Sequence record: SRR20825019_863
DNA: 33,436 nt
Direction: 5' to 3' (one strand)
The notes below the pieces were generated by a model. That model did no database searches. It saw only the letters and a program-made list of their open reading frames with translations, and was not told the origin of the DNA. Each line of letters starts with the position of its first letter. Positions within the stretch are counted from its first letter, which is position 1. Shown in pieces: positions 4,314 through 26,995 of this stretch. The position numbers were made by a program, and so were the translations under genes.

Positions 4314-4369
4314 TTAAGTAAACTTTAAGGTTCAAATCGAGCATTTCTCCCAAATAAAGTGAACTTTTG
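4314..4369 (+). promoter_or_regulatory. OmpR-type direct repeat TTAAG-N6-TTAAG plus -7 box
   Basis: TTAAG at 4314 and 4325; AACTTTTG at 4362, 37 nt after the start of the second half-site. Confidence 0.7.
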
Positions 4370-4373
4370 CACT

Positions 4374-5042: not shown

Positions 5043-6424
5043 ATTTTAGTTTCAAACAACGTATAGCGACTCATTTTATGCTGGCTACAGCAATCATTAT
5101 TGCAGTAGTTTTTGGGATTGTGTATTTCATTGTTCAACAAACAGTTTACAACAATATCGACGAGGACCTCAATTTCGAGGCAAACAAGCACACCTTCGAA
5201 ATTGAAATGGAGGAATCCAATATTAGATTTAGAGATAAAGACGAATGGGAGGAACATGAACATAAGGAAGTTCAAGTAAATCCAGTATTTATCCAATTAA
5301 TGAATACGGCCGGTGAACTCATGGATAAATCACCGAACTTAAAAGAAAACCGACTGACGTTTAAAGATCAAACTCAATTTGGGGATCACTTTAATTCTAA
5401 GCTCAATAAACGATCTATTCGGCAGGTCCAAATACCGATTCTCAAAAATGGAGCGGTGAAAGGATACATCGTTGCGGCAATGTCCTTGGATGCCTCACTC
5501 ATGGTTTTGGCAAATCTTCGAAATACACTGTTCATTTTATATCCAATTGTGTTAGTTGGATTGTTTTTTATCTCTTCATTCCTTGCTGGACGAAGCATTA
5601 TCCCAGTGGTTTCGATTATCAATACAACTAATCGAATTACAAAAAACAACCTCAATGAACGCGTCGATTTGCCTAAGAATTATGACGAACTCTATGACTT
5701 ATCAAGTTCGATCAATGCTCTCTTGGAACGAATAGAAAGTGCGATAGAAAGAGAAAAGCAGTTCACTTCTGATGCTTCACATGAGCTAAGAACACCGCTT
5801 TCTGTACTTCGCGGAACTTTGGAAGTATTGGTGCGCAAAGAACGAACAACGCGCGAATACGAAGAGAAAATTAACTACAGTCTAACAGAAATTGATCGGA
5901 TGGCGACCATTATTGATCAGTTACTCGAGCTCGCACGTTTTGATACTCGATCAGACAAAAATAATGATGAGCATGTTCCATTAATTTCGGTGGTTGATCA
6001 GGTAATCAATCAATTGAGTGAACAAATCCTCAAGAATGATCTTTCGGTACAGTTCAATTTTGATGATTTCAATGATGATTTTTTAGTGAATGAGTTCAGA
6101 ACCCGCTTAATTCTAGAGAATCTGTTGACGAATGCCATAAAATACTCTCATCCAAATGGAAGTATTGAGATTCAACTTCAGAAGAATAGCGAAGGAGTTG
6201 AGTGTATCATTCAAGATCATGGAATTGGAATCAAAAGCGAGGACTTGAGTAAGATTTTTACACCATTCTTTCGTTCAGATGCATTGGAGCATAAATCGAT
6301 CAAGGGAGTCGGATTGGGACTGTCTATTGTTCAGAAAGCAGCCTCTTCCATTGGAGCTGCGATCGATATCTCAAGTGATTTGGGGGTGGGGACAAGAGTA
6401 TCTATCCAATTTAAAGGATTTTAA
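5039..6424 (+). CDS. Sensor histidine kinase (two TM, HAMP, HisKA, HATPase)
   Basis: FTSDASHELRTPL H-box, NLLTNAIKYS, DHGIGI, GVGLGLSIV; ATGA overlap with the regulator. Confidence 0.95.
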   Translation: MNFSFKQRIATHFMLATAIIIAVVFGIVYFIVQQTVYNNIDEDLNFEANKHTFEIEMEESNIRFRDKDEWEEHEHKEVQVNPVFIQLMNTAGELMDKSPNLKENRLTFKDQTQFGDHFNSKLNKRSIRQVQIPILKNGAVKGYIVAAMSLDASLMVLANLRNTLFILYPIVLVGLFFISSFLAGRSIIPVVSIINTTNRITKNNLNERVDLPKNYDELYDLSSSINALLERIESAIEREKQFTSDASHELRTPLSVLRGTLEVLVRKERTTREYEEKINYSLTEIDRMATIIDQLLELARFDTRSDKNNDEHVPLISVVDQVINQLSEQILKNDLSVQFNFDDFNDDFLVNEFRTRLILENLLTNAIKYSHPNGSIEIQLQKNSEGVECIIQDHGIGIKSEDLSKIFTPFFRSDALEHKSIKGVGLGLSIVQKAASSIGAAIDISSDLGVGTRVSIQFKGF

Positions 6425-6476
6425 GATGATCTTAAGATTTCTAGGTTGATGAAGGAATTAGGTTTAAGTACTTTTG
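6421..6476 (+). promoter_or_regulatory. OmpR-type direct repeat TTAAG-N6-TTAAG plus -7 box
   Basis: TTAAG at 6421 and 6432; TACTTTTG at 6469 (37-nt offset). Confidence 0.7.
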
Positions 6477-6496
6477 TTTCAAAATTATAATTTATT

Positions 6497-6943
6497 ATGA
6501 AACAGAGAGTTATAGGGTTTTCGTTGGCCTTTTTCGGTGTGATTTGTTCAAGTTTTCTTTTCATCTCATGTAAAAAAGTAAAAACGAAATCAGTAGAAAA
6601 AACTGTTATTGAAGGAACATGGAAGATTGCGAATCTGACAGATGACGGAGAGGATGAAACTTATTATTTTACAGGATATTCGTTTGATTTCAATTCAGAT
6701 GGAAATGTGATTGCAACAAATGGTTCATCAACAGTTTCTGGAACTTGGTCTGTTTCTAAGGATAATAGTAACGACGATAGTTCGAGTGATGTTGATTTTA
6801 ACTTATCTTTTCCTGAAACCAACAATTTCGATGAGCTAAATGACGATTGGGATATCGTTTTGCAAAATGATAACACGCTTGAATTAAAAGATGTAAGCGG
6901 AGGAAACGGTGGAACGGACTTGTTGACGTTTTCTAAAAATTAA
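6497..6943 (+). CDS. Lipoprotein with lipocalin-like beta-barrel domain
   Basis: Lipobox FISC followed by KK; GTWKI and GTWSV motifs; acidic mature part. Confidence 0.75.
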   Translation: MKQRVIGFSLAFFGVICSSFLFISCKKVKTKSVEKTVIEGTWKIANLTDDGEDETYYFTGYSFDFNSDGNVIATNGSSTVSGTWSVSKDNSNDDSSSDVDFNLSFPETNNFDELNDDWDIVLQNDNTLELKDVSGGNGGTDLLTFSKN

Positions 6944-6958
6944 TCAAAAACAAAATTT

Positions 6959-9520: not shown

Positions 9521-9540
9521 TTTAAACTAGATACGAAATG

Positions 9541-9570
9541 AACCCCAATTGTTTTTCAGTTGGGGTTTTA
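9541..9570 (+). terminator. Rho-independent terminator
   Basis: AACCCCAA-ttgtttttcag-TTGGGGTT followed by TTATGTTT. Confidence 0.75.
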
Positions 9571-9592
9571 TGTTTAGTAGTCTAGCAAAGTC

Positions 9593-9648
9593 TTAAGGAG
9601 ATTTTAAGAAACGACTAAGGTCTTCTTTAGTTTACACCTCTACATTTG
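9593..9648 (+). promoter_or_regulatory. Four 11-bp-phased half-sites plus -7 box upstream of the efflux operon
   Basis: TTAAG 9593, TTAAG 9604, CTAAG 9615, TTTAG 9626; TACATTTG at 9641, 37 nt from 9604. Confidence 0.75.
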
Positions 9649-9670
9649 AGTTCAAATTAATTGTGCTCAG

Positions 9671-12600
9671 ATGATAGAGAAGATTATCAAATTCAGTTTA
9701 GCGAATAAGCTCGTTGTACTATTATTCACCGCGGTTTTGATCGGTGCGGGGATGTATTCTCTCTTGAATCTGCCAATTGGTGCGGTTCCGGATATTACAA
9801 ATAATCAAGTTCAGGTAATCACTACCTCAAGAAACCTTTCCACACAAGACGTTGAGAAGTTTTTAACCTATCCAGTGGAATTGGAAATGGCGAATTTGCC
9901 GAACGTGAAGGAGATTAGATCGATCTCGAAATTTGGTTTGTCGGTGGTAACGATTGTTTTTGATGATGAAATTGGAACGTACCTGCCGAGGCAATTAATC
10001 GCTGAGAAAATAAAGAGTGCAGAGGAAAGAATTCCAGCAGGATTTGGAAAACCTTTCATGGGACCAGTAACGACGGGTTTGGGGGAGATTTATCAATACA
10101 TTCTTGATGTTGATCCTGCATTTAAAGATAATTATTCCATCACCGATTTACGCACTATTCAGGATTGGACGGTAAAACGACAACTTTCTGGAATCCCAGG
10201 AGTGGTGGAAGTCAACACGTGGGGAGGAAGCTTAAAACAGTATGAAGTTGCGATTAATCCAGAACAACTGCGCGCAAGTGGAATTTCGATCACCCAAGTA
10301 TATGCAGCGCTTGAAGCAAATAATAGTATCGCTGGTGGAGGCTATATCGAAAAAGGAGAGGAAAGTTATTTTATCCGAGGAGAGGGATTAGCGGCGTCGA
10401 TTGAAGACATTGAGAATAGTGTAGTTATCACGAGAGAAGGTGTGCCGGTACTGATCAAGGATGTGGCGAAAGTTGGATTTGGAGCTGCAAATCGTTTTGG
10501 TGCAGTTACAGGAAACGGGGAAGGAGAAAAGGTCCTCGGGCAAGTGATGATGCTCAAAGATGCGGATTCAAAAAAGGTAATTGATGCAGTGAAAAAGCGT
10601 GTGGAGGAAATCTCACATACCTTGCCCGAAGGGATTAAAATAAATGCATTTTTAGAACGAAGCGAGTTAATCGCTAAAACGACGTTCACTGTGAGTGAAA
10701 ATCTCATTTTGGGATGCTTAATTGTCATTTTCGTAGTGGTACTCCTCCTCGGAAATCTGCGCTCTGGATTGGTGGTGGCCTCGGTGATCCCGCTGTGTTT
10801 GTTCTTCGCTTTAACGTTCATGTATATTTTTGGTGTCGACGCAAATTTAATGAGTCTGGGAGCCATCGATTTTGGAATTATTATCGACGGAGCGGTGATC
10901 ATCGCAGAGTTTATTGCGTTTAAAATTACTTCGGAACGATTAGCCATAAACAGCTTACCAAAAACCGAACGGTCAGCGTTTATCGATCAAGTGACATTTC
11001 AAGGAACATCGAAAATGATGCGATCCGCAATTTTTGGACAAATCATTATCATCATAGTCTTTATACCGATTTTGTCACTCATCAACGTGGAAGGTAAAAT
11101 GTTCCGTCCAATGGCGCTTGTTTTCTGTTTCGCGTTGGTCGGTGCAATGATTTTATGCTTCACCTACGTTCCTGTGATGTCGTCGCTCTTTTTAAAGCCT
11201 TCGAATCCTAAAAAAAGGAATCTTTCTACACGGTTGGTCGAGTTTTTAGGACGAATTTACAAGCCTGTGATTCTTTGGGCTTTGCGAAAAAAAGCAATCG
11301 TTTTAGGGGGGGCGGTAACACTGCTGGTCCTCGTATTTATTCTTTTTAGTCGAATGGGAGGTGAATTTGTTCCTACATTGGATGAAGGGGATATTGTCAT
11401 TCAACCGGTGTTGAAAACAGGGACTTCGCTGTCTAAAACAATCGAAACTACCACAGCAATCGAGCAAATTTTAATGAAATTTCCTGAAGTAGAGCAAGTG
11501 GTAACGAGAATTGGTGCTGCGGAGGTTCCAACCGATCCAATGTCGATGGAGGAAAGTGATGTAATCGTGAAACTTCGCCCGAAAAGTGAATGGAAAACGG
11601 CTTCTACAAAGGATGAATTAATGGATGCGTTTAAAAAGAAATTACTCGACCTCGCTGGAATTGATTACGAATTCACACAGCCGATTGAGATGCGTTTCAA
11701 TGAGCTAATTACAGGCGTTCGAGCGGATCTGGCAATCAAAGTGTTTGGAGAGGATTTGGAGGTGCTCGCGGCTAAAGCAGCTGAAATTGAAAAAGCCATC
11801 AGTAAGGTAGAGGGAGCATCTGATATTTCGGTGGAGAAGGTGGCTGGACTACCTCAAATGACGGTAAAATATAACCGCCGTAAAATGGCGAAATATGGTC
11901 TCTCAATTGCTGAATTGAATAAGACGCTCACGATGGCGTTTGGTGGAATGACTGCTGGAATGATTTTCGAAGGTGAAAAACAATTCGATCTTGTAGTGCG
12001 CTTTGATGCCGAACATCGCAAGGATATTTCAAACCTTGAAAGGGCTTCTGTTCTGCTCCCCGATGGAAACTCGCTCCCGTTTGTTGAGTTTGCAGAAATT
12101 AGTTACACGAAAGGCCCTGCAAAAATTTCTCGCGATAATACTAAACGACGGATTGTAGTTGGAATTAATGTCCGAAACCGGGACCTTGAATCGGTTGTGA
12201 ATGACGTCCAGAAAATCATCGAAAGCAAAATCGAAATTCCGAAAGGGTACACTGTTGAGTATGGCGGGCAATTTGAGAATCTCCGTTCAGCGCGAAGTAG
12301 GTTGAGTGTTGCAGTTCCAATTGCATTAGTACTCATTTTCTTTTTACTGTACTTCGCTTTTAAGTCGGTGAAGGAAGCGCTCATGATTTACAGCGCGATT
12401 CCATTATCTGCCGTTGGCGGGGTGTTGTTTCTGTGGATGCGAGATTTACCTTTCAGTATTTCTGCAGGAGTTGGATTTATTGCCCTTTTTGGAATTGCAG
12501 TGCTCAATGGAATCGTTCTTATTGAACAGTTTAAAGAATTGAAAGAACACGGAATCAAAAACATAAACAAACGCATTATCATGGGAACACAAGCGCGACT

Positions 12601-13999
12601 TCGACCTGTATTGTTGACTGCGGCAGCAGCGGCTCTCGGCTTTTTACCAATGGCAATTTCTACGAATGCTGGAGCAGAAATTCAGCGACCACTTGCAACT
12701 GTAGTGATTGGTGGATTGATCACAGCCACACTATTGACGTTAATTGTGCTGCCAGTATTGTACGCGTTGTTTGATTCGTCAGCGAGAAAACAAAGCGGTC
12801 TCAAGAGACAAGCGAAGTTGATGATTATGGTTGGGGTTTGCGCTCTTCCTTCGCTTTCATGGTCTCAGTCTACGGAGATTTCTTTGCAAGATGCTCTCGA
12901 ACGGGCAGTGGCAAATAATGGACAGTTGAAAGCATTAAAAAAGGATGTGGAGATGAATCAAGCGTTGGAGAAAACGGCTTTTTCAATCGATAAAACAGAC
13001 ATCTATTACAGCTTTGATCAGAATAATATCGCTCCGAATAATGCCGCGTTGAATGTCTGGGGACTGAATCAATCGTTCCAATTACCGTCTTTTTATGTAG
13101 CTCAAAAAAAAATGCTCACGAGTGCTACATCCATGTCGGAATCGGAATACGTATTGGATGAACAATTGATAAAAAAGGAAGTGTCCAAGGCGTATTTCAC
13201 GGCACTTTATTGGCGAGAAATGACTGAAAACATGAAGTATTTGGACGGTATTTACCGCCGTTTTTCTGCGGGAGCTGAATGTAAATTCCAACTCGGAGAA
13301 TCGAATAACCTCGAAAAATTAACTGCACAATCCAAGCAAAAGGAAATAGAATTGCTGTTGAATCAAAGTCGATTGAATTTTGAGAAGGCTATCGTTCATC
13401 TAAATTCATGGATTCAAGACTCCGAAACAATTACTGTAATGAGTGGAAACGAACAAGTGTCCCTAGTTCCGTTGGATACTGCAAACCATCCTGGATATAC
13501 TCTTCATCAACAAGCCATTGCGTATTCAGAATATCAACTGAGTGCCAATAAACAAGCGTATCTGCCTACATTGAAGGTAGGAGCATTTCAGGGATCGAAC
13601 GGCGCTGTTGCTCCAAATCGTTACTATGGTGTACAAGCCGGAGTAGCGGTTCCACTTTTTTTCGGTGCGGATCGCGCGAGGGTGAATGCATCGAAAATTG
13701 AGGTGATGAAAAAGGAAGCCGAATTAGACAATTATGCAGCGCTTCTTAAAGCAAACTATCAATCCTTTGTGCTTGAAATAGAAGGGTATCAGCAAGGACT
13801 AGACTATTTCGAATCCATTGGTCGATCTTTGTCTGAAGAAACCATTTTGAGCGCGCAGAAATCCTATACGTCTGGGGAAATTGACTTTTTGCAATATGCA
13901 ACGCTTCTAGACAATGCTGCTGCGATGAAATTGAACTATCTGCAGCAGAAACTTTTGTACAATTTAACGGTAATCGAAGCGAACTACATCCTAAACTAA
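9671..13999 (+). CDS. czcA: CusA/CzcA-family heavy-metal RND permease fused to a C-terminal TolC-like outer-membrane factor
   Basis: AVPDITNNQVQV, GAIDFGIIIDGAVIIAE, RLRPVLLTA, QRPLATVVIGG; about 400 extra C-terminal aa with OMF features (ISLQDALERA, SYTSGEIDFLQY). Confidence 0.92.
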   Translation: MIEKIIKFSLANKLVVLLFTAVLIGAGMYSLLNLPIGAVPDITNNQVQVITTSRNLSTQDVEKFLTYPVELEMANLPNVKEIRSISKFGLSVVTIVFDDEIGTYLPRQLIAEKIKSAEERIPAGFGKPFMGPVTTGLGEIYQYILDVDPAFKDNYSITDLRTIQDWTVKRQLSGIPGVVEVNTWGGSLKQYEVAINPEQLRASGISITQVYAALEANNSIAGGGYIEKGEESYFIRGEGLAASIEDIENSVVITREGVPVLIKDVAKVGFGAANRFGAVTGNGEGEKVLGQVMMLKDADSKKVIDAVKKRVEEISHTLPEGIKINAFLERSELIAKTTFTVSENLILGCLIVIFVVVLLLGNLRSGLVVASVIPLCLFFALTFMYIFGVDANLMSLGAIDFGIIIDGAVIIAEFIAFKITSERLAINSLPKTERSAFIDQVTFQGTSKMMRSAIFGQIIIIIVFIPILSLINVEGKMFRPMALVFCFALVGAMILCFTYVPVMSSLFLKPSNPKKRNLSTRLVEFLGRIYKPVILWALRKKAIVLGGAVTLLVLVFILFSRMGGEFVPTLDEGDIVIQPVLKTGTSLSKTIETTTAIEQILMKFPEVEQVVTRIGAAEVPTDPMSMEESDVIVKLRPKSEWKTASTKDELMDAFKKKLLDLAGIDYEFTQPIEMRFNELITGVRADLAIKVFGEDLEVLAAKAAEIEKAISKVEGASDISVEKVAGLPQMTVKYNRRKMAKYGLSIAELNKTLTMAFGGMTAGMIFEGEKQFDLVVRFDAEHRKDISNLERASVLLPDGNSLPFVEFAEISYTKGPAKISRDNTKRRIVVGINVRNRDLESVVNDVQKIIESKIEIPKGYTVEYGGQFENLRSARSRLSVAVPIALVLIFFLLYFAFKSVKEALMIYSAIPLSAVGGVLFLWMRDLPFSISAGVGFIALFGIAVLNGIVLIEQFKELKEHGIKNINKRIIMGTQARLRPVLLTAAAAALGFLPMAISTNAGAEIQRPLATVVIGGLITATLLTLIVLPVLYALFDSSARKQSGLKRQAKLMIMVGVCALPSLSWSQSTEISLQDALERAVANNGQLKALKKDVEMNQALEKTAFSIDKTDIYYSFDQNNIAPNNAALNVWGLNQSFQLPSFYVAQKKMLTSATSMSESEYVLDEQLIKKEVSKAYFTALYWREMTENMKYLDGIYRRFSAGAECKFQLGESNNLEKLTAQSKQKEIELLLNQSRLNFEKAIVHLNSWIQDSETITVMSGNEQVSLVPLDTANHPGYTLHQQAIAYSEYQLSANKQAYLPTLKVGAFQGSNGAVAPNRYYGVQAGVAVPLFFGADRARVNASKIEVMKKEAELDNYAALLKANYQSFVLEIEGYQQGLDYFESIGRSLSEETILSAQKSYTSGEIDFLQYATLLDNAAAMKLNYLQQKLLYNLTVIEANYILN

Positions 14000-14026
14000 C
14001 TGAACGAACGATTTAATATTGAACCC

Positions 14027-15166
14027 ATGAAAATAAAAAATGCAGCTTGGATTTTTAGTACTGTTTTGGTATTGATGTCTTGTGGATCCGAAGAGAATAC
14101 TACGTTAACGGATGTTGGAAATGAAGCTTCGTCGAGTGAAGTTGTTTTGACGAAAAAGCAGTTTGACCTTGGGAAAATGAAAATGGAATCTTTCTCTGAA
14201 CAGTCGTTTGATGGCATGATTCACGTAACTGGGATGATTGATGTTCCTGCGGAAAGTAAATCTGTGGTAAGTGCCTATTTCGGCGGGTATGTAAAGGAAA
14301 TTAGCCTGAAACAAGGTCAAATGGTAAAAAAAGGTCAGACTTTATTTGTGCTTGAAAATCCTGAATATCTTCAAATTCAACAAGATTTTCTAGAGGCGAA
14401 AAGTCAACTGAGTTATTTGAAATCAGACTATGAGCGACAAAAGGAACTTTCTAAGGATAATATTACTTCGCAAAAATCTTACTTGAAAGCAGAATCAGAT
14501 TACAAAGTGACGTTGGCGCGCTACGAATCTCTCAAGAAAAAATTAGGATTGATGAATCTAAATGCGGAAAGTGTGGATGAAACAAAATTACGCTCAACGA
14601 TAGTGGTTACTTCACCAATCACGGGATACATCACAGAAATTAGTGCAACGAAGGGAATGTTCTTAAATCCTTCGGATGTTGCACTTACGATTTTAAATAC
14701 CGCAGATATGCACGTAGAATTGAATGTTTTCGAAAAACAGCTCGGGAAAATTGCAGTTGGACAACCTGTTACGTTTCGTTTACAAGACAATTCTCAGCAA
14801 TTTTCAGCGAGTATAGAGATCATTAATAAGTCGATAGATCTTCAGAAACGAACGGTGATGGTGCATTGTCCTGTGAAGACCAGTGAAGCAACTCAACAAT
14901 TAATTCCAGGAATGTTTGTGGAAGCAGAAATTGTCACTTCGGAAGGGAAAGTATTGGCCTTGCCCGAAAGTGCTGTAATTTCAATTCGAGATAAGTTTTT
15001 TGTGCTCTTGAAGAAGAATGTATCTAACGAAACACTGAGTTTCGAGCAAAAAGAAGTACTCGTGGGACAGACCAAGAATGGATTTGTCGAAATTCTGAAT
15101 ACCGATGCTTTCGGAAAACAAAGTGTATTTTTAACGAAAGGAGCATTTAATTTAATTCAGGAATAA
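14027..15166 (+). CDS. czcB: RND efflux periplasmic adaptor (CzcB-like lipoprotein)
   Basis: Lipobox LMSC; lipoyl-like GQMVKKGQTL, coiled coil, SPITGYI, LIPGMFVEAEI, LPESAV. Confidence 0.9.
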   Translation: MKIKNAAWIFSTVLVLMSCGSEENTTLTDVGNEASSSEVVLTKKQFDLGKMKMESFSEQSFDGMIHVTGMIDVPAESKSVVSAYFGGYVKEISLKQGQMVKKGQTLFVLENPEYLQIQQDFLEAKSQLSYLKSDYERQKELSKDNITSQKSYLKAESDYKVTLARYESLKKKLGLMNLNAESVDETKLRSTIVVTSPITGYITEISATKGMFLNPSDVALTILNTADMHVELNVFEKQLGKIAVGQPVTFRLQDNSQQFSASIEIINKSIDLQKRTVMVHCPVKTSEATQQLIPGMFVEAEIVTSEGKVLALPESAVISIRDKFFVLLKKNVSNETLSFEQKEVLVGQTKNGFVEILNTDAFGKQSVFLTKGAFNLIQE

Positions 15167-15168
15167 GC

Positions 15169-15885
15169 GTGGAGAAGACAAGTGAAGAGCTGCAAGAAGA
15201 ATACCTAGCAAAGCATTACATACATCGAAGTAATTGGTTAAGGGCAGCTGTACTTGGAGCAAACGATGGAATTTTATCAATATCGAGTTTGGCGATAGGC
15301 GTTGCGGCTGCGAGTAACTTTAAAGAACCTATTATTCTGGCAAGCGTAGCGGGATTGGTTGGTGGAGCATTGTCTATGGCGGCGGGTGAATACGTGTCGG
15401 TGAGTTCGCAAACAGATGTCGAAAATGCCGATATTGAAAGAGAAAGAGCGGAGCTGAAAGATATGCCTGAAATTGAATTACAACGTTTGGCTGATATCTA
15501 CGAAAATCGTGGATTGAAAAAGGAAACAGCACTGATCGTTGCAAAAGAACTCACAGAACATGACGCCTTAGGAGCTCATATTCGCGATGAATTGGGGATT
15601 ACAGACATTAGTCAAGCGAAACCTTTGCAAGCTGCATTGGCTTCGGGATTGGCATTCATCGTTGGGGGCTTATTACCTATGCTCACTGTATTTTTACTTC
15701 CGTTGAATAGACTGGAGTACTATTTGTACGGCTTTGCCATTCTCTTTCTTGTTGTTTTGGGAATATTGGCGGCAAAAATTGGCGGATCTAACATTTTCAA
15801 GGCAATTGTACGCATTACGCTCTGGGGAACAATTGCTATGGGGTTAAGTTCTCTAGTCGGACACTTATTTGGGGTGAATGTGTAA
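15169..15885 (+). CDS. VIT1/CCC1-family Fe/Mn transporter
   Basis: WLRAAVLGANDGILS, SMAAGEYVSVSSQ, HIRDELG; GTG start. Confidence 0.93.
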   Translation: MEKTSEELQEEYLAKHYIHRSNWLRAAVLGANDGILSISSLAIGVAAASNFKEPIILASVAGLVGGALSMAAGEYVSVSSQTDVENADIERERAELKDMPEIELQRLADIYENRGLKKETALIVAKELTEHDALGAHIRDELGITDISQAKPLQAALASGLAFIVGGLLPMLTVFLLPLNRLEYYLYGFAILFLVVLGILAAKIGGSNIFKAIVRITLWGTIAMGLSSLVGHLFGVNV

Positions 15886-19275: not shown

Positions 19276-20742
19276 TCACCGTGTTTCTTTGAAATGAACT
19301 TCGTAGATGGTGTGTGAAAACATATCTTTTTCTTTCCACTTTACAATATTCTCATCCTTGGATTTTATTCTCCGAGCATTTTTTCGAATTCGACGCGGCG
19401 TCCGAGAAGGTAATTTGTATGCTTTGTATTTTCTTCGTCTTTGAAAATCTCGGTGGGGTACTTCTTTGAAGTCAAACATAACTCCATTGGCTCCAATTAG
19501 ATTGATTTTCCCAAGAGGTTCTATGTCGATGTTGGGATAAAGTGATACCAAATCAAACTGCCGTCCTTCCAACTGTCCGTTTACCTTAACGTAGATCTTT
19601 TGAGGATTCTGAACCTCTCTCAAAGCGATTCCATGTTGTCGTTTAATCCAAAGGTATTTTGATGAATAGACAGTGGTTGCCAACGTACATTTTAGTATTT
19701 CTCCACTAGAACTAGTTCCTTCTGCGTTTCCTGAGACAATGTACCCAGTTGAATCTCTGACAATGTGAATTTTTCTCGACTGAAGTGAATCTAACTTAAA
19801 ATAGGGAGTCGGTCGATACGGGCCATGTCGCTGAAGAAAAGATTCAATTGGATGATTTCCAGTGATTTCATAGTCGGAGATAAACTTACCATTCTCTAAA
19901 TAGGTCTGAATTTTTATGTCAAATACTGTATCGATTCCTTGAAGAGTTGTCAAACGTTGAATAGTACGTTGAAGAATTGTGTCATATTCAATGAATTCAA
20001 TGATTCTCTCGCTCGCTTGGATTCTTTCCGTGTACTTTTCAGTTATTTCTTTTGATTTCCTTTCAACGTTTTTCGTTTGCAACGTACATATACTGTCTCT
20101 TTTGGGGTAAGCGCCAGAAAATATAGAGTCTATATAATACTGTGTTTTAATTATTGTATCGCCTCGCTCGGCACTGTCATACTTCCTCCAGCGGGTTTTT
20201 TCCTGTTCAAGTAAACTAATGGTGTATGGTTGTGGAGAACTAAGCGAATTTATTGCGTTGAGATCAGTTATCATCCAGTTTTTGTAGTACTGAGTGAGCT
20301 GATTATCTAAAGCAAAATAATGTATTTTATTTTCTTGGTGTTCTTCCATTGCAACTTCAGAATTCCAAACGACTCCCGAATCCATTTCAAATATGATTTG
20401 ATAACTCAGTTGATTGATTGTATCGTACCATTTGTGATAAATGGAAAGATCTTCACTATTGCTCCAATAGGCATATAAGTCATTTACCTCAGTCACTACT
20501 GAAATGAGGTAGGATTTTTTTTCATTAATTGGATCGAAATAAATCACTTTACTCACAGAAAGTGAGCCAGAATCTTTTGTTAGCTCAATTGAAGCAAGAT
20601 GCGACTCTCCAGTTTCTGAAAGAGAGTACTGCCTGTCGTAGTTTATCGTTTTTACAAAATCGATGTATTTCTTTTGTCCAAAAGATGGAATGGACACTAA
20701 TGTGACAAAGAGAAGGAAGAAAATTTTAAAAAGTCGTTTCAT
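19276..20742 (-). CDS. Hypothetical secreted protein
   Basis: Likely start MKRLFKIFFLL at 20742 (signal peptide; TAATG overlap with the upstream gene). Confidence 0.7.
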   Translation of the reverse strand: MKRLFKIFFLLFVTLVSIPSFGQKKYIDFVKTINYDRQYSLSETGESHLASIELTKDSGSLSVSKVIYFDPINEKKSYLISVVTEVNDLYAYWSNSEDLSIYHKWYDTINQLSYQIIFEMDSGVVWNSEVAMEEHQENKIHYFALDNQLTQYYKNWMITDLNAINSLSSPQPYTISLLEQEKTRWRKYDSAERGDTIIKTQYYIDSIFSGAYPKRDSICTLQTKNVERKSKEITEKYTERIQASERIIEFIEYDTILQRTIQRLTTLQGIDTVFDIKIQTYLENGKFISDYEITGNHPIESFLQRHGPYRPTPYFKLDSLQSRKIHIVRDSTGYIVSGNAEGTSSSGEILKCTLATTVYSSKYLWIKRQHGIALREVQNPQKIYVKVNGQLEGRQFDLVSLYPNIDIEPLGKINLIGANGVMFDFKEVPHRDFQRRRKYKAYKLPSRTPRRIRKNARRIKSKDENIVKWKEKDMFSHTIYEVHFKETR

Positions 20743-21266
20743 TACAAGTTGATCATAGAACGTTTTTTTCTTTGTTTTATTAGAATGATACAGACGACAA
20801 CTGTCCCAATAATTCCGCTTATGTAGGAAGAAACATGCGACCATCCAACGGCTAAAAATAGGCTGTGCACTCTTTTGTCCATCAATGAAGCAAGTCTTGG
20901 CAAAAGATAGATCACCGAGAGTTCGCTCAGTGTATAACCAACAATTCCAGCGATAAGTGCAATTCCAAACATGGTCAACAAAAGTTTGATGATTAAGCGG
21001 AGCACTATCCTGAATTCAAGTGGCGAATTCTTGCCAAAATGATTGCATCCTGCGATCAAAATTCCCATCGGAAGTCCAACCCACCAGGTCGCAATAACAC
21101 CCCACGTCAAAGCAAGCAAAATAGGTGATTCACTCTCAATCACCTTTGGATGTCCAATTGTAAAATATTCAACACACAGATGGGCTGTAATGAAATCGTG
21201 CAGAATTCCGTAGCAGATAGATAACCCTAACGCACTCAGCACAATTTTCATGAAGTTTAGAATCAT
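20742..21266 (-). CDS. Hypothetical four-TM membrane protein
   Basis: Four hydrophobic helices; YGILHDFITAHLCVEYFTIGH and WGVIATWWVG motifs. Start could be the second Met. Confidence 0.75.
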   Translation of the reverse strand: MILNFMKIVLSALGLSICYGILHDFITAHLCVEYFTIGHPKVIESESPILLALTWGVIATWWVGLPMGILIAGCNHFGKNSPLEFRIVLRLIIKLLLTMFGIALIAGIVGYTLSELSVIYLLPRLASLMDKRVHSLFLAVGWSHVSSYISGIIGTVVVCIILIKQRKKRSMINL

Positions 21267-21380
21267 CGGTGAATTATTTGATCAGTTCTACTTTTTCAGA
21301 TGAAGTTTAAAGATACCAATTAGATTTACTTGCACATCTTCTCAAAGATCGCGTTTAAACGATTTTATCACACCATAAAA

Positions 21381-21426
21381 CAGGTGTTTTTACTGTTTGC
21401 TCTATTCTTTTCAAAAGATACTTTTA
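21381..21426 (+). promoter_or_regulatory. Putative promoter of the MNIO operon with an upstream operator-like box
   Basis: TTTG (21396-21399), N19, TACTTTTA (21419-21426) fits Bacteroidota -33/-7 spacing; CAGGTGTTTTTACTG lies immediately upstream. Confidence 0.4.
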
Positions 21427-21485: not shown

Positions 21486-22946
21486 ATGCATGATTTAACT
21501 TCCATCAAAAAATTATTTACAATTCCCAAAGGTGGTGTCAATGACGCTAACTTTGCGGAAGCGATGCAGCAGGCGATTTCATTGGAATTAGCAACAATTC
21601 CAACGTATTTGTCCACGTACTATTCCATTCAACGAACTCCAGATCAGGCGGCAATTTATCAGAAAATACTTTCAAGTATTCCTGGAGATTTGAACCAAGA
21701 CGCGAGCAAAATTGCAGAAGAACTGACGATAGATGCAATGGTGTATGCGAATAAAACCGCCGCGTTAATTATGAGCGTCGTGATTGAAGAAATGTTGCAC
21801 CTTTCATTATCCAGTAATGTAAATCAAGCAATGATCGGTCCGCCAAACCTCATGAATATTGTGCCGAATTTGAATTTTCCAACACAATTGGATGGTCATC
21901 AACCAGAGTTCCCTATCAACCTTGGTAAACTTTCGATGCTACAATTGAAAACTTTCCTGCAAATTGAAAGTCCAAATGCGTTTACTGTTGGAACACCTGA
22001 GTTATTGAGAGCGGTAAAATACACAACAATAGGCGAGTTCTACGAAATGATTATTTCATACATTGAAAATGATTTTCAGGGAACGTTCGATATGAATCGT
22101 CCACAATTAACGCCCGATCAGCCTTTTTACTCGCAAAACTCGATTAATACTGTTTATTACGACCGCGACCATAAACCGCATTTCGTTAGTGAAGATGATA
22201 GTGGTGATCTAAAACTCGTGCTAAATGGAGAAACGGCGATTGATGCAATGAATGAAATTATCCATCAAGGAGAAGGACATCAAGGAGGAACTCAATTGAC
22301 ATTTGATGAAAATGGAATGCCAATTCCATTACCGGTTGTAGATGGAGAAGTACAATTTAGTCCAGAGGATTATGATGATCCCGAAAAGAAAGAGCTTTCT
22401 CATTTTGGTAAATTCCTCGAAGCGTACAGCCTCGGAGATCATTACATCACTAAATTTGATCAGTATGGAATCGATTTCTTCGATCTTTTTGTTTACAATC
22501 AACTAGATAATGCAAAGTTGGCAGATTTTGCTTCCAATGCAGAGGTTCAAATGGTCGCTGAATTAGGAAATGCAATTTATACATATATCATCTTGATGAT
22601 TGATACGTGCTATAACTCTGATAAATCAACACAGTTTGGCGTGTTTATGTACGGAATTCATAAATCGATGATTTGGTTATTGAGTGAATTGGGGAATGGA
22701 ATTAGAAAAAAGACCTTCACAAAAGGTGGAGTTGCGTACAACGGGGCATTGAGCTTTGAATATTTCGATTTCAGTAAGAAAACGGGAGTAAGTCCAAAAG
22801 AACAAATGACTGCGCTTGCGACTACTCTTGGGAACACTTATCCTAATTGGGCATGGCTTACTACGGACAAAGCGTATCTCGAGTCTTTGCCTGATGTTGG
22901 TTTAGACTACAGCGTAAAGGCGAATATGCCAGCAATTCCTAATTAA
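21486..22946 (+). CDS. Ferritin-like domain protein (PF12902-type, related to the VioB/RebD/StaD domain)
   Basis: QQAISLELATIPTYL...YSI, SVVIEEMLH, FLQIESP, YTTIGEFY, IIHQGEG, SHFGKF. Confidence 0.85.
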   Translation: MHDLTSIKKLFTIPKGGVNDANFAEAMQQAISLELATIPTYLSTYYSIQRTPDQAAIYQKILSSIPGDLNQDASKIAEELTIDAMVYANKTAALIMSVVIEEMLHLSLSSNVNQAMIGPPNLMNIVPNLNFPTQLDGHQPEFPINLGKLSMLQLKTFLQIESPNAFTVGTPELLRAVKYTTIGEFYEMIISYIENDFQGTFDMNRPQLTPDQPFYSQNSINTVYYDRDHKPHFVSEDDSGDLKLVLNGETAIDAMNEIIHQGEGHQGGTQLTFDENGMPIPLPVVDGEVQFSPEDYDDPEKKELSHFGKFLEAYSLGDHYITKFDQYGIDFFDLFVYNQLDNAKLADFASNAEVQMVAELGNAIYTYIILMIDTCYNSDKSTQFGVFMYGIHKSMIWLLSELGNGIRKKTFTKGGVAYNGALSFEYFDFSKKTGVSPKEQMTALATTLGNTYPNWAWLTTDKAYLESLPDVGLDYSVKANMPAIPN

Positions 22947-22978
22947 CAAGAACATTTTTTACTTTAAACGAAAGAACT

Positions 22979-23560
22979 ATGTCAGATTCGACACCAATAA
23001 AACAATTGCTCCCACCATTAGAACTTCACGCCTGTATGGGATTAAATTCGTGTAAAAATCACGGGTTTTCAGGAAACAATGATTGCGCAGGAAAGGGAGA
23101 TTGCGCAACAATTAATCATCCTTGTCACACCTTAAACGAGTGTAAAGGACAAGGTGGTTGCGGTTTATTCGGAACAACCGAAGAATTTTGTCACCCAGGA
23201 GAAAATGATTGTCGCTACCAAGGAAGCTGTGGAACTCCGATTATTTCTTCACGGTTCATTGTTCAAGGACCGAATAAAGGTCGCAGCGTTTGGCAGCTGG
23301 CACGTAAACTCTTTGAAGAAAAAATGACAGGAGCTGGAAAAACATTTGGTAATCCACCTGCTGGACAAGAATATGGACCAACGGAAGCTTTTGCAGCTGC
23401 ACGTGGAGCATACGAGTCATGCGGACAAAGTGGATCTCGATACTGTTCCTACGCATTTGATCCAACGAAAAAAGCCGAAGAGCAAGCAGCAAGACAAAAA
23501 GCTTTCCAAGAAAAGAGCGCAAATGAATTGCCAGATACCTTGGATAACTGTGGATGTTAG
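22979..23560 (+). CDS. Cys-rich repeat protein, putative MNIO substrate/RiPP precursor (BufA2-like repeats, no signal peptide)
   Basis: 14 Cys; HACMGLNSCK and HPCHTLNECK; NDCAGKGDC, NECKGQGGC and NDCRYQGSC; directly upstream of the DUF692 gene. Confidence 0.75.
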   Translation: MSDSTPIKQLLPPLELHACMGLNSCKNHGFSGNNDCAGKGDCATINHPCHTLNECKGQGGCGLFGTTEEFCHPGENDCRYQGSCGTPIISSRFIVQGPNKGRSVWQLARKLFEEKMTGAGKTFGNPPAGQEYGPTEAFAAARGAYESCGQSGSRYCSYAFDPTKKAEEQAARQKAFQEKSANELPDTLDNCGC

Positions 23561-23572
23561 TATTTTGTGCCC

Positions 23573-24511
23573 ATGATAAATTCGACGAATAATCAGTTGG
23601 GTCTTCCCAATCTTGGATTAGGTTTGGGATTAAGGACTCAACATTTTAATCATATTCTGGAAGAGAATCCCAGCGTTGATTGGTTCGAGATCATTTCCGA
23701 AAATTTCATGGACTCGTTTGGGCGTCCGCGCTACGTTTTAAATCAAATTAAAGAACGATACCCTGTGGTGATGCACGGGGTATCGCTTTCTATTGGGAGC
23801 ATGGACCCGTTGGATTTTGATTATTTGAAAAAGTTGAAATCACTCGCTGATGAAATCAATCCCGCGTGGATTAGTGATCATTTGTGTTGGACAGGCGTAC
23901 TTTCTGTAAATTCTCACGATTTGCTACCGTTGCCCTTAAATGAAGAGTCACTCAAGCATGTGTGTAGCAGAATCAATACCGTTCAAGATTATTTAGAGCG
24001 ACCGTTGATTTTGGAGAATCCAAGTACGTATGCATCCTTTAAAAATTCGAATATTCCCGAATGGGATTTTTTGCGTTTAATGGCAAAGGAAACACGGTGC
24101 GGACTGCTTTTAGACGTAAATAACGTGTTTGTCTCTGCTTTCAACAACGATTTCGATCCAGTGGAATACATCGAAGGAATTCCGTTTGAACAAGTGGTGC
24201 AAATGCATCTCGCAGGACATCAACATTGTGGAAATTATATTATTGATACACACGATAGAGAAGTTACAGACCAAGTGTGGGAATTGTTTCGCTTAGCTTG
24301 GCAAAAATCAGGTGGCGTTTCGACCTTACTTGAATGGGATGGAGACGTTCCAGAATTTGATACGTATTATCAAGAACTGCAAAAGGCAAAAGATTTCATG
24401 GGTGGAAAATTTAAAGGCATTAACCTAGAAGAACGAACGGGAGAATTTGAACGCGTTTCGAATCCTATTCATTTGATGAAACCAGAAATCATTCACACAG
24501 CAAATTCATAA
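23573..24511 (+). CDS. Multinuclear non-heme iron-dependent oxidative enzyme (MNIO, DUF692; MbnB/TglH/ChrH/BufB family)
   Basis: GLGLR, WFEIISENF, MHGVSLSIG, SDHLCW, LENPSTY, LLLDVNN, MHLAGH, IDTHD, LLEWD. ATG 23573 or GTG 23567. Confidence 0.95.
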   Translation: MINSTNNQLGLPNLGLGLGLRTQHFNHILEENPSVDWFEIISENFMDSFGRPRYVLNQIKERYPVVMHGVSLSIGSMDPLDFDYLKKLKSLADEINPAWISDHLCWTGVLSVNSHDLLPLPLNEESLKHVCSRINTVQDYLERPLILENPSTYASFKNSNIPEWDFLRLMAKETRCGLLLDVNNVFVSAFNNDFDPVEYIEGIPFEQVVQMHLAGHQHCGNYIIDTHDREVTDQVWELFRLAWQKSGGVSTLLEWDGDVPEFDTYYQELQKAKDFMGGKFKGINLEERTGEFERVSNPIHLMKPEIIHTANS

Positions 24512-25344
24512 TGAGTAATTTAAAGAATTTACCTGATTTTCAGTCGTGGATGCAACAACAATTACTCTATCCACACGGAGAAGTAGCAGCTGATGGATCA
24601 ATAAAACAAAGTGATGTTCCATTAGAGGAATTGGTTCAAGATTCAAAGCGTTTATCGGCACGTGACCATTTGGCGATTTACCAACGAAGTTACATTGCAC
24701 GCTTGCGAGATTGCATGTGTAAAGTGTTTAGTTCGTTAGAATATGCTTTAGGTGAAGAGTTGTTTGTGGCTTTTGCAGATACGTATTTGGAATCTCATCC
24801 TTCTTCGAACTATAATTTGAGCAATCTTGGAGCTAAGTTCGCCGATTTTCTACAATCCACGCGACCAGACGCTCACGAAGAAATAAAAGAAGACTGGCCT
24901 GATTTCATGATTGAATTGGCGCGATTCGAGTTTGCGATCAATACCTTATTCGATCAAGAAGATCCATCAACGAATAATCTTGCTACCACGAAAACGAAAG
25001 AAAGTGATTTACGACTTTGCAACGTGCTTGAGTTGTTTGAATTCAAATTTCCGATTCGACCATTTTACAGTGCATTCGTGAATGGAGATCAACCCGATTT
25101 ACCCGAAAAAAGGCAAACTTATTGTGCCGTAATCAGACAAAGACACAATTTCCGAATTGCACTTTACGACCTTCAACCAGCGCAATATTTCTTTTTGAAG
25201 CAACTGCAACAAAACGAAAGTGTTCAACAGACTTTTGACTATTTGACAACAGAAATGTCGATGGATGAAAAGCAGCTTCAAACTGTGTGGGAAATCTGGA
25301 AACAAACGTGGATTGCGGCTGGATTTCTAGCAGAAATTGGTTAA
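24511..25344 (+). CDS. DUF2063 protein, MNIO partner (BufC/HvfC-like)
   Basis: RLSARDHLAIYQRSYIARL...LGEELF...Y...HPS...LGAKFADFL...ELARFE; TAATG overlap with the MNIO gene. Confidence 0.88.
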   Translation: MSNLKNLPDFQSWMQQQLLYPHGEVAADGSIKQSDVPLEELVQDSKRLSARDHLAIYQRSYIARLRDCMCKVFSSLEYALGEELFVAFADTYLESHPSSNYNLSNLGAKFADFLQSTRPDAHEEIKEDWPDFMIELARFEFAINTLFDQEDPSTNNLATTKTKESDLRLCNVLELFEFKFPIRPFYSAFVNGDQPDLPEKRQTYCAVIRQRHNFRIALYDLQPAQYFFLKQLQQNESVQQTFDYLTTEMSMDEKQLQTVWEIWKQTWIAAGFLAEIG

Positions 25345-25360
25345 ACGAAATGCAATTCAT

Positions 25361-26251
25361 TTAGCACGGCGGACCCCAATAGGAAGAGAGATAAATTTGC
25401 GTGATAATTCCATTTGAAAAGTAGAAACGAATTCCAGCAGAATCACCTAGTGAAATAATAAACTCGTTATTTTCCTGCAATTCTCGAATCATTTCCTCCG
25501 TATAGAAGAGCTTCACTTGTGCTCCATATTCTTTTTTAAATTGCTCATAACTATCTCCAACGGTAAGTTGTCTTCCAGTTTTAAAAGAACTGTTTTTAGA
25601 ATCGATGTTAATGAGTTGAATTGTGCCATTTATGAAATGATCTGCGAAAAACGTCAACTTTAATTGCTTTTCATGATAGTGCCAAACAATATAGATTTCA
25701 TCATAAGCTCCATAATAAGTCGAAATTGAGTCTGGTATACCAATTCTACGTGTAATTTCTGGGGATGAATAGCCCAATTGAAGTCCATTAATTCTTTCTT
25801 TCTTCACAAGCTCTAACTCACTCTCTTCGCGGTTCAAACCGTGAAGTTGAATTTTTTCATCATCAAAACTAGCAGCTATTTTGCGTGAACCTGTGCAAAC
25901 ATCTCCTTCTTCAATTCCTGTGAGCCATTGATCAAAGTACTGAGTTCTTTCTTCTGTGAATTGGTTAAGTACGGATAAACGACAAAGTACGTAGCTGCCA
26001 TAAAACTCGGGTAACAATAGCTTTACTTCACTGTCGCGATACTCGATCCAATTTCGTTGTGCCGCTCTCAGGTTTTTGATAAAAAGCGTATCTGTTTTAT
26101 ATTCATCCAGAAGTTGTTTGTACACTTTGTTCAGTTTCAAATCAGCTTGAAGAAATTTTTGGTGCATTTCTTCTTCCATTTCACGCTGTGTTTGTCCATA
26201 ACAGAACGTAAATGAAAAAATAAGAAGAGGAATTAAAGTGAGTTTACGCAT
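25361..26251 (-). CDS. Secreted LprI/DUF1311 domain protein with an extra C-terminal domain
   Basis: Signal peptide from MRKLTL (ATG 26251); QTQREM...ADLKLNKVYKQL...LRAAQRNWIEYRD...C. Confidence 0.8.
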   Translation of the reverse strand: MRKLTLIPLLIFSFTFCYGQTQREMEEEMHQKFLQADLKLNKVYKQLLDEYKTDTLFIKNLRAAQRNWIEYRDSEVKLLLPEFYGSYVLCRLSVLNQFTEERTQYFDQWLTGIEEGDVCTGSRKIAASFDDEKIQLHGLNREESELELVKKERINGLQLGYSSPEITRRIGIPDSISTYYGAYDEIYIVWHYHEKQLKLTFFADHFINGTIQLINIDSKNSSFKTGRQLTVGDSYEQFKKEYGAQVKLFYTEEMIRELQENNEFIISLGDSAGIRFYFSNGIITQIYLSSYWGPPC

Positions 26252-26419
26252 GAGTGTAGATGAATGTTTGTACTTGATTACCAAACAAAGATAAGATTCA
26301 ATAAAAGAATTTTAGGTGATCTCGATTATTCGATACCGTTGTTCGATTATCCGTTAATAGTATTTAGCTACAGCGAGCGAGAGACTTTTGGTTGACTGAA
26401 GTGTTCAAAGTGATCTTTC

Positions 26420-26995
26420 TTAGTTGTAATCAAAATCTTTCACTTTGATTTTACACATTTCTCCCGTTTTCAGGTTGTGCCAAACGATTCCTTCGATTCC
26501 ACAATCATTGCCAAAAATACTTTTTTGATTCGGAAGCCATTTTTTCAATCCTTCAAAATCTGTGGGAGCATTTGGATAAACGACCTTGTTTTTCCAATCT
26601 TCTAATGAGAATATGAAAAGCGTGTGCCCCACAAGGTTCAAAGGATTCCCTTGAATTTTTTCTCCTAACGCTTCAGCACTCCATTCTCCATCAGGCACGT
26701 TTGAAAAATCAGTGTTTTTTACAGCATCAAAAATGTACGCATCCGCTTTGTCAGATTCATCTGCATCGATATACCAAGGATCTTGAATTCCGTGTTGCTT
26801 TTGAATTTTACTCGGATTTCTTCTTTTCTCCACTCTAACGACGGTCTGATTTCTTACGGTCAATCGAACATTTGTTCCATCTAGTTTTTCTGTAGCAATA
26901 GCAGATTCAAAATCAAATTCAGGAACGGCGAGTGTTGTATTTACTTTCCTGTTTCCTTCCCAATTTCGGCCAAATATTGTAGGTATTTTTTCCAT
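26420..26995 (-). CDS. ATP-dependent RNA ligase-like nucleotidyltransferase (DUF5565/RLIG1-like)
   Basis: KIPTIF, motif I ATEKLDGTN (K37), EALGEKIQGNP, motif IV IEGIVWH, motif V KIK. Confidence 0.8.
   Translation of the reverse strand: MEKIPTIFGRNWEGNRKVNTTLAVPEFDFESAIATEKLDGTNVRLTVRNQTVVRVEKRRNPSKIQKQHGIQDPWYIDADESDKADAYIFDAVKNTDFSNVPDGEWSAEALGEKIQGNPLNLVGHTLFIFSLEDWKNKVVYPNAPTDFEGLKKWLPNQKSIFGNDCGIEGIVWHNLKTGEMCKIKVKDFDYN

Follow-up and report, generated by a model that had tools for sequence, protein, structure and literature searches.

The DNA stretch analysed here (the window; record SRR20825019_863, 33,436 nt) encodes a four-gene cassette consisting of a ferritin-like protein of the PF12902 family (FERR), a cysteine-rich protein without a signal peptide (CYS), a DUF692 enzyme of the MNIO type (MNIO) and its DUF2063 partner. 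Our analyses revealed that these genes are one fixed, self-contained and horizontally scattered module, which is widespread yet undescribed as far as the searchable literature shows. What is new is the ferritin-linked, signal-less variant of a bufferin-type system, its natural FERR::CYS fusions, a second class of shorter PF12902::CYS-like fusions, and the occurrence of CYS-like domains in DoxX-fused and Tat-like forms (Tat, twin-arginine translocation). We propose, with a probability of roughly 0.58, that the matured CYS is a cytoplasmic metal or redox domain, or a subunit, of FERR, and that its thiooxazoles would be installed by the MNIO pair. The four genes are arranged as follows.

21486-22946, + strand: FERR, a 486-aa PF12902 ferritin-like protein
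22979-23560, + strand: CYS, 193 aa with 14 Cys, without a signal peptide
23573-24511, + strand: MNIO (DUF692), BufB-type, 312 aa from the ATG start, with an alternative GTG start at 23567
24511-25344, + strand: DUF2063 partner of 277 aa, classed as PME-type 1 from its Pfam signature; its gene overlaps the stop codon of MNIO

The cassette is tightly packed. FERR and CYS are separated by 32 nt, CYS and MNIO by 12 nt if MNIO begins at the ATG (23573) or by 6 nt if it begins at the GTG (23567), and the MNIO and DUF2063 partner genes overlap in a TAATG junction at 24509-24513. Both flanks are occupied by - strand open reading frames (ORFs), at 20742-21266 and 25361-26284. An earlier, sequence-only reading of this stretch had described exactly such a unit, with four co-oriented genes, gaps of 32 and 12 nt, a TAATG overlap and opposite-strand genes on either side, and its description was confirmed from the ORFs and the sequence wherever it could be checked. 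Its family calls are borne out by matches to PF12902, PF05114 and PF09836 above the respective cut-offs, and the MNIO also passes the BufB model. The same reading had stressed what the locus lacks. DoxX was detected neither in the window nor in 160 related loci (tblastn with three DoxX queries), and no sigma factor, protease or exporter is conserved around the cassette. The position held by DoxX in canonical loci is taken by FERR.

The arrangement recurs far outside the window. Scanning a single genome of each species for genes related to CYS yielded 261 stretches; the best 80 of these were analysed, and their locus genes were identified by tblastn with the window proteins. A scan of metagenome contigs with an alignment of three FERR::CYS fusions found 324 relatives, from which 80 loci were kept. 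The gene order FERR-CYS-MNIO-DUF2063 is maintained in both sets wherever the contig leaves room and, because it recurs in every related locus with room, the arrangement lies far beyond chance. In the genome loci, FERR is directly upstream of CYS in 79/80 (the exception, L070, has 110 nt upstream), MNIO is present in 80/80, and the DUF2063 partner in 76/80, with all four misses located at contig ends. In the metagenome loci, MNIO follows in 51/51 cases with at least 900 nt of room, the DUF2063 partner in 45/45 with at least 1800 nt, and FERR is present in all loci with room. The flanking genes of the window recur in none of the 80 genome loci, and clustering of all flanking ORFs revealed no further broadly shared gene, just shadow ORFs and genus-specific neighbours. 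The carriers belong mainly to Flavobacteriaceae, Roseivirga, Chitinophagales, Hymenobacter, Lewinella and Crocinitomicaceae, and include the gammaproteobacterial genera Cognaticolwellia, Alteromonas and Marinomonas. The G+C content of the metagenome loci ranges from 34 to 71%, indicating that the module reaches well beyond Bacteroidota.

Co-occurrence was analysed in 401 evenly sampled genomes of Bacteroidota. CYS is encoded in 5/401, and FERR (E <= 1e-60) in the same five, adjoining CYS. The ferritin-like gene, whose linkage to homologous MNIOs had been named earlier as a check, is therefore syntenic with them by all three counts, namely the 79 genome loci, all roomy metagenome loci and the 5/5 co-occurrence. 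PF05114 proteins are found in 25/401 genomes, five of which carry the cassette. Thirteen of the 25 hold BufB/HvfB-like MNIOs (318-349 bits) without CYS or a strong FERR, and the MNIOs of the remainder are weaker and more distant. At the 13 non-cassette loci, most have a DoxX gene and some have sigma/anti-sigma-like genes, and the recognisable precursors carry a signal peptide and are of the EGKCG or CSGKDGC type.

The natural fusions bear directly on the role of CYS. FERR and CYS are joined in one ORF in 19/80 metagenome loci, each with MNIO after it; in 46/80 they are separate adjacent ORFs, and in 15/80 the contig ends before CYS. The fusion proteins P0241-P0244 (692-737 aa) consist of a complete FERR with a CYS-like domain behind it, and the FERR::CYS fusions lack N-terminal hydrophobic signals. 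An exhaustive HMMER search yielded 275 clusters (50% identity) at E <= 0.001. Among the 150 of these clusters that were listed, 12 are proteins of 610-799 aa with a C-terminal CYS-like stretch, and 10 are proteins of 439-534 aa with a CYS-like C-terminal end, an N-terminal PF12902 domain being present in 5/5 scanned. By their domain content, the shorter proteins are a second PF12902::CYS-like fusion class. The fusions favour CYS as a subunit or functional domain of the ferritin-like protein over a released product. The sequence-only reading had left two alternatives, a subunit or domain of the ferritin-like enzyme and the maturation of CYS by two iron enzymes; the fusions side with the former, and the latter stays conjectural.

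CYS-like domains are not confined to the ferritin-linked proteins. They are fused to DoxX in P0245 (373 aa) and P0353 (410 aa), and all four short forms that were read (P0329, P0331, P0336 and P0345, 156-172 aa) have the motif RR-x-F-N-x-L and a hydrophobic stretch at their start. Judged by eye, this start is Tat-like, and a Cys behind the stretch in three of the four suggests a lipoprotein signal. All of the CYS-like domains match the BufA2 model at 16-30 bits, below its cut-off, and they therefore represent a family of their own related to BufA2, of which the window CYS is the signal-less, ferritin-linked branch.

CYS itself has no Pfam family and no DUF2282 match. It scores 30.2 bits against the NCBIfam BufA2 model NF050166 (cut-off 60), and all 24/24 homologues likewise match this model below its cut-off. 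BLASTP of CYS against a canonical 12-Cys BufA2 (E = 2e-4) aligns the E-L-x-H-C-x-G-x-N-x-C start and an N-x-C-K-G-Q-x-x-C unit, and the motif C-x-G-x-N-x-C is common to both proteins. CYS is a distant BufA2 relative that lies below the model cut-off. A protein-collection search found 219 CYS relatives, nearly all of ~195 aa; the 120 of the 219 that were listed share 54-86% identity, are mostly from Bacteroidota, and the source names shown are all 'hypothetical protein'.

The cysteines of CYS are strongly conserved. Thirteen are invariant in the alignment of 24 relatives, and across 142 distinct domains, C25, C36, C42, C49, C55, C61, C78, C84 and C148 are kept in 142/142 and C19 and C156 in 141/142, giving 11 universal Cys; C71 (84/142) and C191 (86/142) are not universal. 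H17, H47 and H50 are near-universal, as are the N-x-C and G-x-C spacings, and C-x5-C units are present. Residues 1-86 form the BufA2-like Cys-rich region, which is presumed to be the MNIO substrate region. They are followed by a conserved helical region (residues 87-193) with the conserved segment P87-I88 ... R92 ... S-V-W105 ... A108-R109 ... F112 and helices predicted by AlphaFold2 at 104-118, 136-141 and 162-189. A fold search with the low-confidence CYS model (mean pLDDT 51) gave an uninformative best Z of 3.0, and an ESM Atlas look-up, in which recognition was below the usual level, returned only unnamed clusters.

These conserved residues allow another reading, in which CYS is a plain, unmodified zinc or iron-sulfur protein serving FERR as a redox partner, with FERR itself or some other substrate as the target of the MNIO pair. 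H17, H47, H50 and the C-x5-C units could indeed bind a metal without any modification. However, CYS lies directly upstream of MNIO, which is the precursor position published in PMC12452194 (main text), carries the BufA2 motifs, and never occurs without MNIO where room exists. We consider an unmodified CYS very improbable.

The absence of a signal peptide, which was judged by ORF start, alignment and hydropathy and not by a dedicated predictor, is agreed upon by all three. The CYS ORF begins at the first start codon past an in-frame stop, and a mis-called start is contradicted because there is no in-frame start further upstream. None of the 24 aligned homologues has an N-terminal extension. The top 10-residue Kyte-Doolittle hydropathy within the first 45 residues is 0.59-1.47 in 24 CYS proteins, versus 1.99-2.51 in 12 canonical MNIO precursors with signal peptides. 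These observations dispose of the possibility that the cassette is a bufferin locus of the usual exported kind, whose start was mis-called or whose export route is hidden, and that FERR is an unrelated neighbour. Although the MNIO passes the BufB equivalog cut-off and Tat-like relatives of the CYS domain exist, the 24/24 homologues lack any extension or hydrophobic segment, DoxX is absent, and FERR is co-inherited and sometimes fused. Moreover, two gammaproteobacterial genomes hold, besides the cassette, separate canonical Buf1 and Buf2 loci with signal-peptide precursors and with DoxX in place of FERR. We therefore reject an exported canonical bufferin, to which we give practically no credit, on the combined grounds of the missing upstream start, signal and DoxX and of the FERR linkage.

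The modifying enzymes of the cassette look conventional. The MNIO matches PF05114 at 358.1 bits (3.2e-107, cut-off 25) and the NCBIfam equivalog NF050167 (MNIO_BufB) at 360.7 bits (cut-off 310), compared with 251 bits for the HvfB model (cut-off 360). Over 128 cassette MNIOs and 16 non-cassette MNIOs, 21 polar or aromatic residues are invariant, including H68, H103, E148, D181, H212, H216, D225, H227 and E254, and merely four positions are cassette-specific. A quick maximum-likelihood tree groups the cassette MNIOs with Buf2-type and CSGKDGC-type enzymes, and the EGKCG-associated MNIOs of Bacteroidota form a separate branch with a support of 100 (Shimodaira-Hasegawa-like approximate likelihood ratio test, SH-aLRT). 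The DUF2063 partner matches PF09836 at 59.7 bits (3.4e-16, cut-off 27.2), as do 30/30 cassette partners, and scores 67.5 bits against HvfC (cut-off 142). Its 277 aa are consistent with two domains; the window partner reaches 24.6 bits against NGO1945_C (PF22106, RRE-type; cut-off 27), and 4/30 partners match this model at E <= 0.001. As far as family models and conserved residues can tell, the MNIO and its partner are indistinguishable from bufferin maturases.

FERR matches PF12902 at 112.3 bits (4.1e-32, cut-off 22.3) and no NCBIfam family. Its AlphaFold2 model (pLDDT 89.4, pTM 0.91) shows a four-helix-bundle core and a second helical bundle at residues ~347-486. E101, E102, H105, E161, E263, E303 and H306 are identical in 151/151 relatives, and E34 in 147/151. 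In the model, the pattern E34 / E102-x-x-H105 / E263 / E303-x-x-H306 is distributed over four core helices, with E34 on helix 23-46, E102 and H105 on helix 67-116, E263 on helix 248-263, and E303 and H306 at the start of helix 306-325. FERR thus appears to keep a complete putative dimetal-carboxylate ligand set. The closest solved relative is the PF12902 protein CC_0557 of Caulobacter vibrioides (PDB 3hl1), which shares the Pfam family and the fold of FERR (252 aligned residues with an rmsd of 2.6 and 24% identity, VIA-align Z 23.0) and was also found by Foldseek (E = 3.3e-5) and phmmer (3.5e-8). While 3hl1 has 317 aa, FERR adds long insertions and the second helical bundle. A complex prediction for FERR and CYS (score 0.01, mark 0.34), made without our own alignments and with the partner fold uncertain, counts neither way.

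The intact ligand set of FERR raises the question of whether FERR acts on CYS instead of with it. FERR could be a second oxidative tailoring enzyme working on CYS before or after MNIO, in a two-enzyme maturation similar to that of RiPPs (peptides that the ribosome makes and that are modified after translation), and the end product would then be a free intracellular metal-buffering protein that is not bound to FERR. The complete, invariant dimetal-carboxylate set resembles that of oxidases of this fold, FERR opens the operon and is strictly co-inherited, and the 11 universal Cys, versus 6 in a BufA2 unit, leave room for a second chemistry. On the other hand, stable FERR::CYS fusions exist in two separate subfamilies, an arrangement seen more commonly between subunits or domains than between an enzyme and its single-turnover substrate, and secondary modifications are rare in bufferin-type clusters according to the main text of PMC12452194. 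We regard both the tailoring role and the free end product as unlikely.

The correspondence between FERR and DoxX offers yet another role for FERR. Because the two proteins occupy the same slot and are both fused to CYS-like domains, the comparison suggests that they play equivalent roles in the cytoplasmic and exported versions of the system. FERR might accordingly be a maturation helper, a cytoplasmic stand-in for DoxX/HvfX that would supply or protect iron or remove the reactive-oxygen by-products of MNIO. FERR holds the DoxX position in a cassette none of whose loci has DoxX, both proteins are fused N-terminally to CYS-like domains, and the NCBIfam model 'HvfX family Cu-binding RiPP maturation protein' gives 60.8 bits for the DoxX portion of P0353, which is below its cut-off of 80. 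The generic fold neighbours of FERR, i.e. Dps, bacterioferritin and rubrerythrin, would also suit such a function. However, canonical BufB/BufC pairs with near-identical catalytic residues exist without FERR, it is left without explanation why signal-less substrates alone would require a helper, and the role of DoxX is itself described as unsettled (PMC12452194, main text). A pure helper function is, in our judgement, quite improbable.

We return to CYS as a domain or subunit of FERR, for which we propose the following sequence of events. Judging from family membership, the BufB-type MNIO and its DUF2063 partner would oxidise conserved cysteines in the disordered, BufA2-like N-terminal region of CYS to 5-thiooxazoles, the bufferin chemistry. 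Because the sequence provides no export signal, protease or exporter, the product would remain in the cell as a protein. The matured CYS would then work with FERR as a subunit or domain and not as a free peptide, as the obligate linkage and the fusions indicate. Finally, the domain, rich in thiooxazoles, thiolates and His, may bind a thiophilic or redox metal, and it may feed electrons or metal to the FERR dimetal site or sequester metal beside that site. A further step, which we advance only tentatively and hold to be rather doubtful, is that an enzyme inside the cell uses the thiooxazoles as its metal or redox cofactor, one derived from protein, and that they are not a metal chelator for the periplasm or for secretion; this would make the cassette a new, 'rubrerythrin-like' class of PF12902 oxidases or peroxidases with a dimetal site. 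In that case, the electron- or metal-delivering module would possibly be the BufA2-like domain, whether separate or fused, matured by its own RiPP-type pair, a part that we hold with the same reserve. Rubrerythrin consists of a diiron ferritin-like four-helix bundle followed by a C-terminal Cys-rich metal domain. The resemblance of the cassette to rubrerythrin and nigerythrin is an analogy of layout only, with no sequence relationship, the Cys part of the cassette being BufA2-like and accompanied by a maturase pair of its own; the fold neighbours of FERR include nigerythrin (1yux), with a Z of 9.3.

Several observations weigh against CYS being a metal or redox subunit of FERR. Fusions are also possible between an enzyme and the substrate it acts on, which makes them compatible with FERR as a tailoring enzyme. 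The entry title of 3hl1, the sole solved relative of FERR, gives no function, and the matches of FERR to Dps, bacterioferritin, rubrerythrin and related bundles (Z ~8-11) fall within the noise range for helical bundles. In the AlphaFold2 model of CYS, residues 1-86 have pLDDT values below 50, and a metal site cannot be described from it. In the quick tree, the cassette MNIOs are not one resolved clade (3 label changes are needed, 2 of them forced), and the CSGKDGC-precursor-associated MNIO group is nested on a long branch. The sequence-only reading had looked for an MNIO clade co-conserved with the ferritin-like gene; the co-conservation was found, and a single MNIO clade was not recovered from the quick tree. 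Lastly, we rejected the heavy-metal efflux genes upstream in the window as a general clue to a metal role, since CusA-like genes lie near 2/160 loci.

The cassette differs from the systems described so far. Bufferin clusters contain precursor, MNIO, DUF2063 and DoxX genes, further conserved genes being very rare, and Sec-signal precursors go with authentic DUF2063 partners (PME-type 1), signal-less ones with PME-type 2; the role of DoxX is left unsettled, and absorbance at 305 nm is reported for Buf1 and Buf2 (all from the main text of PMC12452194). The cassette lies outside the published cluster types (Buf1/Buf2), because each of the three defining features tested, a Sec signal, a DUF2282/BufA2 match and DoxX, is lacking. 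It is closest in design to the Buf2 system (BufA2, BufB, BufC, DoxX), with which it shares a BufB-grade MNIO, a PF09836 partner, the precursor-MNIO-partner order and Cys motifs. Unlike in Buf2, CYS has no signal peptide and scores 30.2 bits where 60 are required, its Cys-rich region has ~9 Cys versus 6 and is extended by the conserved helical C-terminal region, there is no DoxX, and a PF12902 gene always precedes CYS and is sometimes fused to it. The oxazolin/fontiphorin type (HvfA-like EGKCG, HvfB, HvfC, HvfX) has in common with the cassette the logic of MNIO and DUF2063, with conversion of Cys to 5-thiooxazole (PMC13097082). However, its precursors carry signal peptides with DoxX nearby, the MNIO and partner of the cassette fall below the HvfB and HvfC cut-offs, and the EGKCG-associated MNIOs of Bacteroidota belong to a separate tree branch.

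Two published groups come nearer to individual features of the cassette. Adjamnio-I comprises 100 signal-less sequences of 122-293 aa with 8-21 Cys, located before MNIO and without a signature (Antoine et al. 2025, PMC12452194, main text). CYS, with its 193 aa and 14 Cys, its lack of a signal and its position before MNIO, fits this description, the comparison being one of descriptions only. In that main text, however, adjamnio-I is listed with PME-type 2 partners, in contrast to the cassette, whose partners are PF09836-positive in 30/30 cases. The fusions listed there, MerC|Buf1, MerC|Buf2, Buf1|Cytochrom_C|FGE-sulfatase and Buf_EGKCG|EF-hand_5, likewise show MNIO substrates as domains of larger proteins. 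These published proteins are membrane-bound or periplasmic, whereas the PF12902::CYS-like fusions, which the same main text does not list, have no export signal and are joined to a putative dimetal protein.

The literature searches turned up no account of the cassette. The words 'ferritin', 'PF12902' and 'Bacteroid' are absent from the main text of PMC12452194, to which this statement is confined, the supplements (Fig. S3, Table S1) lying outside its scope. Among the matches listed by a full-text literature search, there is no MNIO, DUF692, DUF2063 or thiooxazole paper with a ferritin-like partner, PF12902 does not occur, and co-mentions of DUF2063 or MNIO with ferritin are confined to unrelated papers. 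No full-text co-mention was found for thiooxazole with ferritin, nor for multinuclear, MNIO and Flavobacterium together. DUF692 and ferritin are co-mentioned in PMC8224329, which is irrelevant judging from its passages, and in PMC9060507, a paper on MbnBC. The passages of the Fontimonas thiooxazole paper (PMC13097082) contain neither 'ferritin' nor 'signal peptide'. The suspicion that the architecture is uncharacterised is in keeping with these results, its overlap with adjamnio-I being judged by description from the main text.

PF12902 proteins also occur in other settings. Two Bacteroidota genomes encode short PF12902 paralogues (352-357 aa) in a different gene context without MNIO (L184:2598-7939 and L185:2288-7261), the shared context consisting of a ~650-aa protein, the PF12902 protein, a ~290-aa protein and a TatD-like hydrolase; the ~650-aa and ~290-aa proteins have no Pfam family in L184, whose copies were those scanned. 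Moreover, a fifth gene (~320-360 aa) adjoins the cassette in 33/160 loci of several lineages (e.g. L125:4887-5891, L025:9360-10322 and L033:4371-5345) and is absent from the window. Its products match a THAP4-like haem-binding beta-barrel model below the cut-off in 3/3 tested. Since a homologue (L186:7906-8835; 31% identity, E = 5e-32) occurs in a cluster that also encodes a GMC oxidoreductase and another, short PF12902 protein, the fifth gene may be a partner of PF12902 proteins in general.

Upstream of the cassette, one further element was observed.

21380-21393, + strand: dyad-like motif ACAGGTGTTTTTAC, preceding the start of FERR by 106 nt

This motif may be a promoter or operator element. 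Its pattern, ACAGGTA-N4-TAC with at most 2 substitutions, is present within 300 nt upstream of FERR in 26/73 loci, against a background of 0.14 per 300 nt. It lies 58-130 nt upstream of FERR and is fixed at -63/-64 in the Kordia, Dokdonia and Crocinitomix loci; by the same count, the window copy is at -107. As evidence for a shared regulator site upstream of FERR, this amounts to a modest motif in part of the loci, and no known operator was recognised among them. In the window, a simple scan reports a terminator-like hairpin (21370-21387) at the site. A sigma-70 promoter scan, which does not cover Bacteroidota promoters, gave 10 sites versus 12.9 expected, an uninformative result.

The remainder of the window contains several genes of separate interest. 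A heavy-metal efflux island on the + strand (4359-15885) lies 5.6 kb upstream of the cassette. It encodes an OmpR-type response regulator and a histidine kinase, which match heavy-metal sensor models best and below the cut-offs, a protein with a type IX secretion system tail, a CzcB-like adaptor, a VIT-family protein and a pump of the CusA/CzcA family (TIGR00914, 1136.8 bits, cut-off 701) of resistance-nodulation-division (RND) transporters. The 1442-aa RND transporter (9671-13999, + strand) has an OEP region (PF02321, residues ~1272-1442) joined to the AcrB/CusA body. Such a single polypeptide of pump and outer-membrane factor is unusual, and it is either an apparent fusion or the result of a missed stop codon. 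On the other side of the cassette, a 191-aa protein (26420-26995, - strand) matches the RNA ligase family PF17720 at 27.6 bits (cut-off 25) and PF09414 at 23.6 bits (cut-off 27), and covers the N-terminal part alone of the ligase models. Two - strand ORFs, one of 522 aa (19276-20844) and a membrane-like one of 174 aa (20742-21266), overlap by 103 nt and have no Pfam family; the longer of the two probably begins further downstream than listed.

To conclude, our work describes an MNIO cassette that departs from the published picture in several respects. Bufferin-type MNIO products have so far been described as exported copper chelators, and the substrate of the cassette has no export signal. The cassette breaks the published rule linking signal peptides to authentic DUF2063 partners, being signal-less yet of PME-type 1, and its fourth obligatory gene, a ferritin-like one, breaks the published near-absence of extra conserved genes. 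The fusions suggest that maturing one domain of a cytoplasmic protein of ~700 residues can be the dedicated task of an MNIO. The carriers include cultivable strains of Flavobacterium, Aquimarina, Roseivirga, Marinomonas and Cognaticolwellia, which makes the system directly testable. If CYS is indeed a matured domain or subunit of FERR, the cassette would provide a first functional handle on the PF12902 proteins, whose sole solved member has no stated function, and would move MNIO chemistry from natural products towards the biogenesis of protein cofactors.

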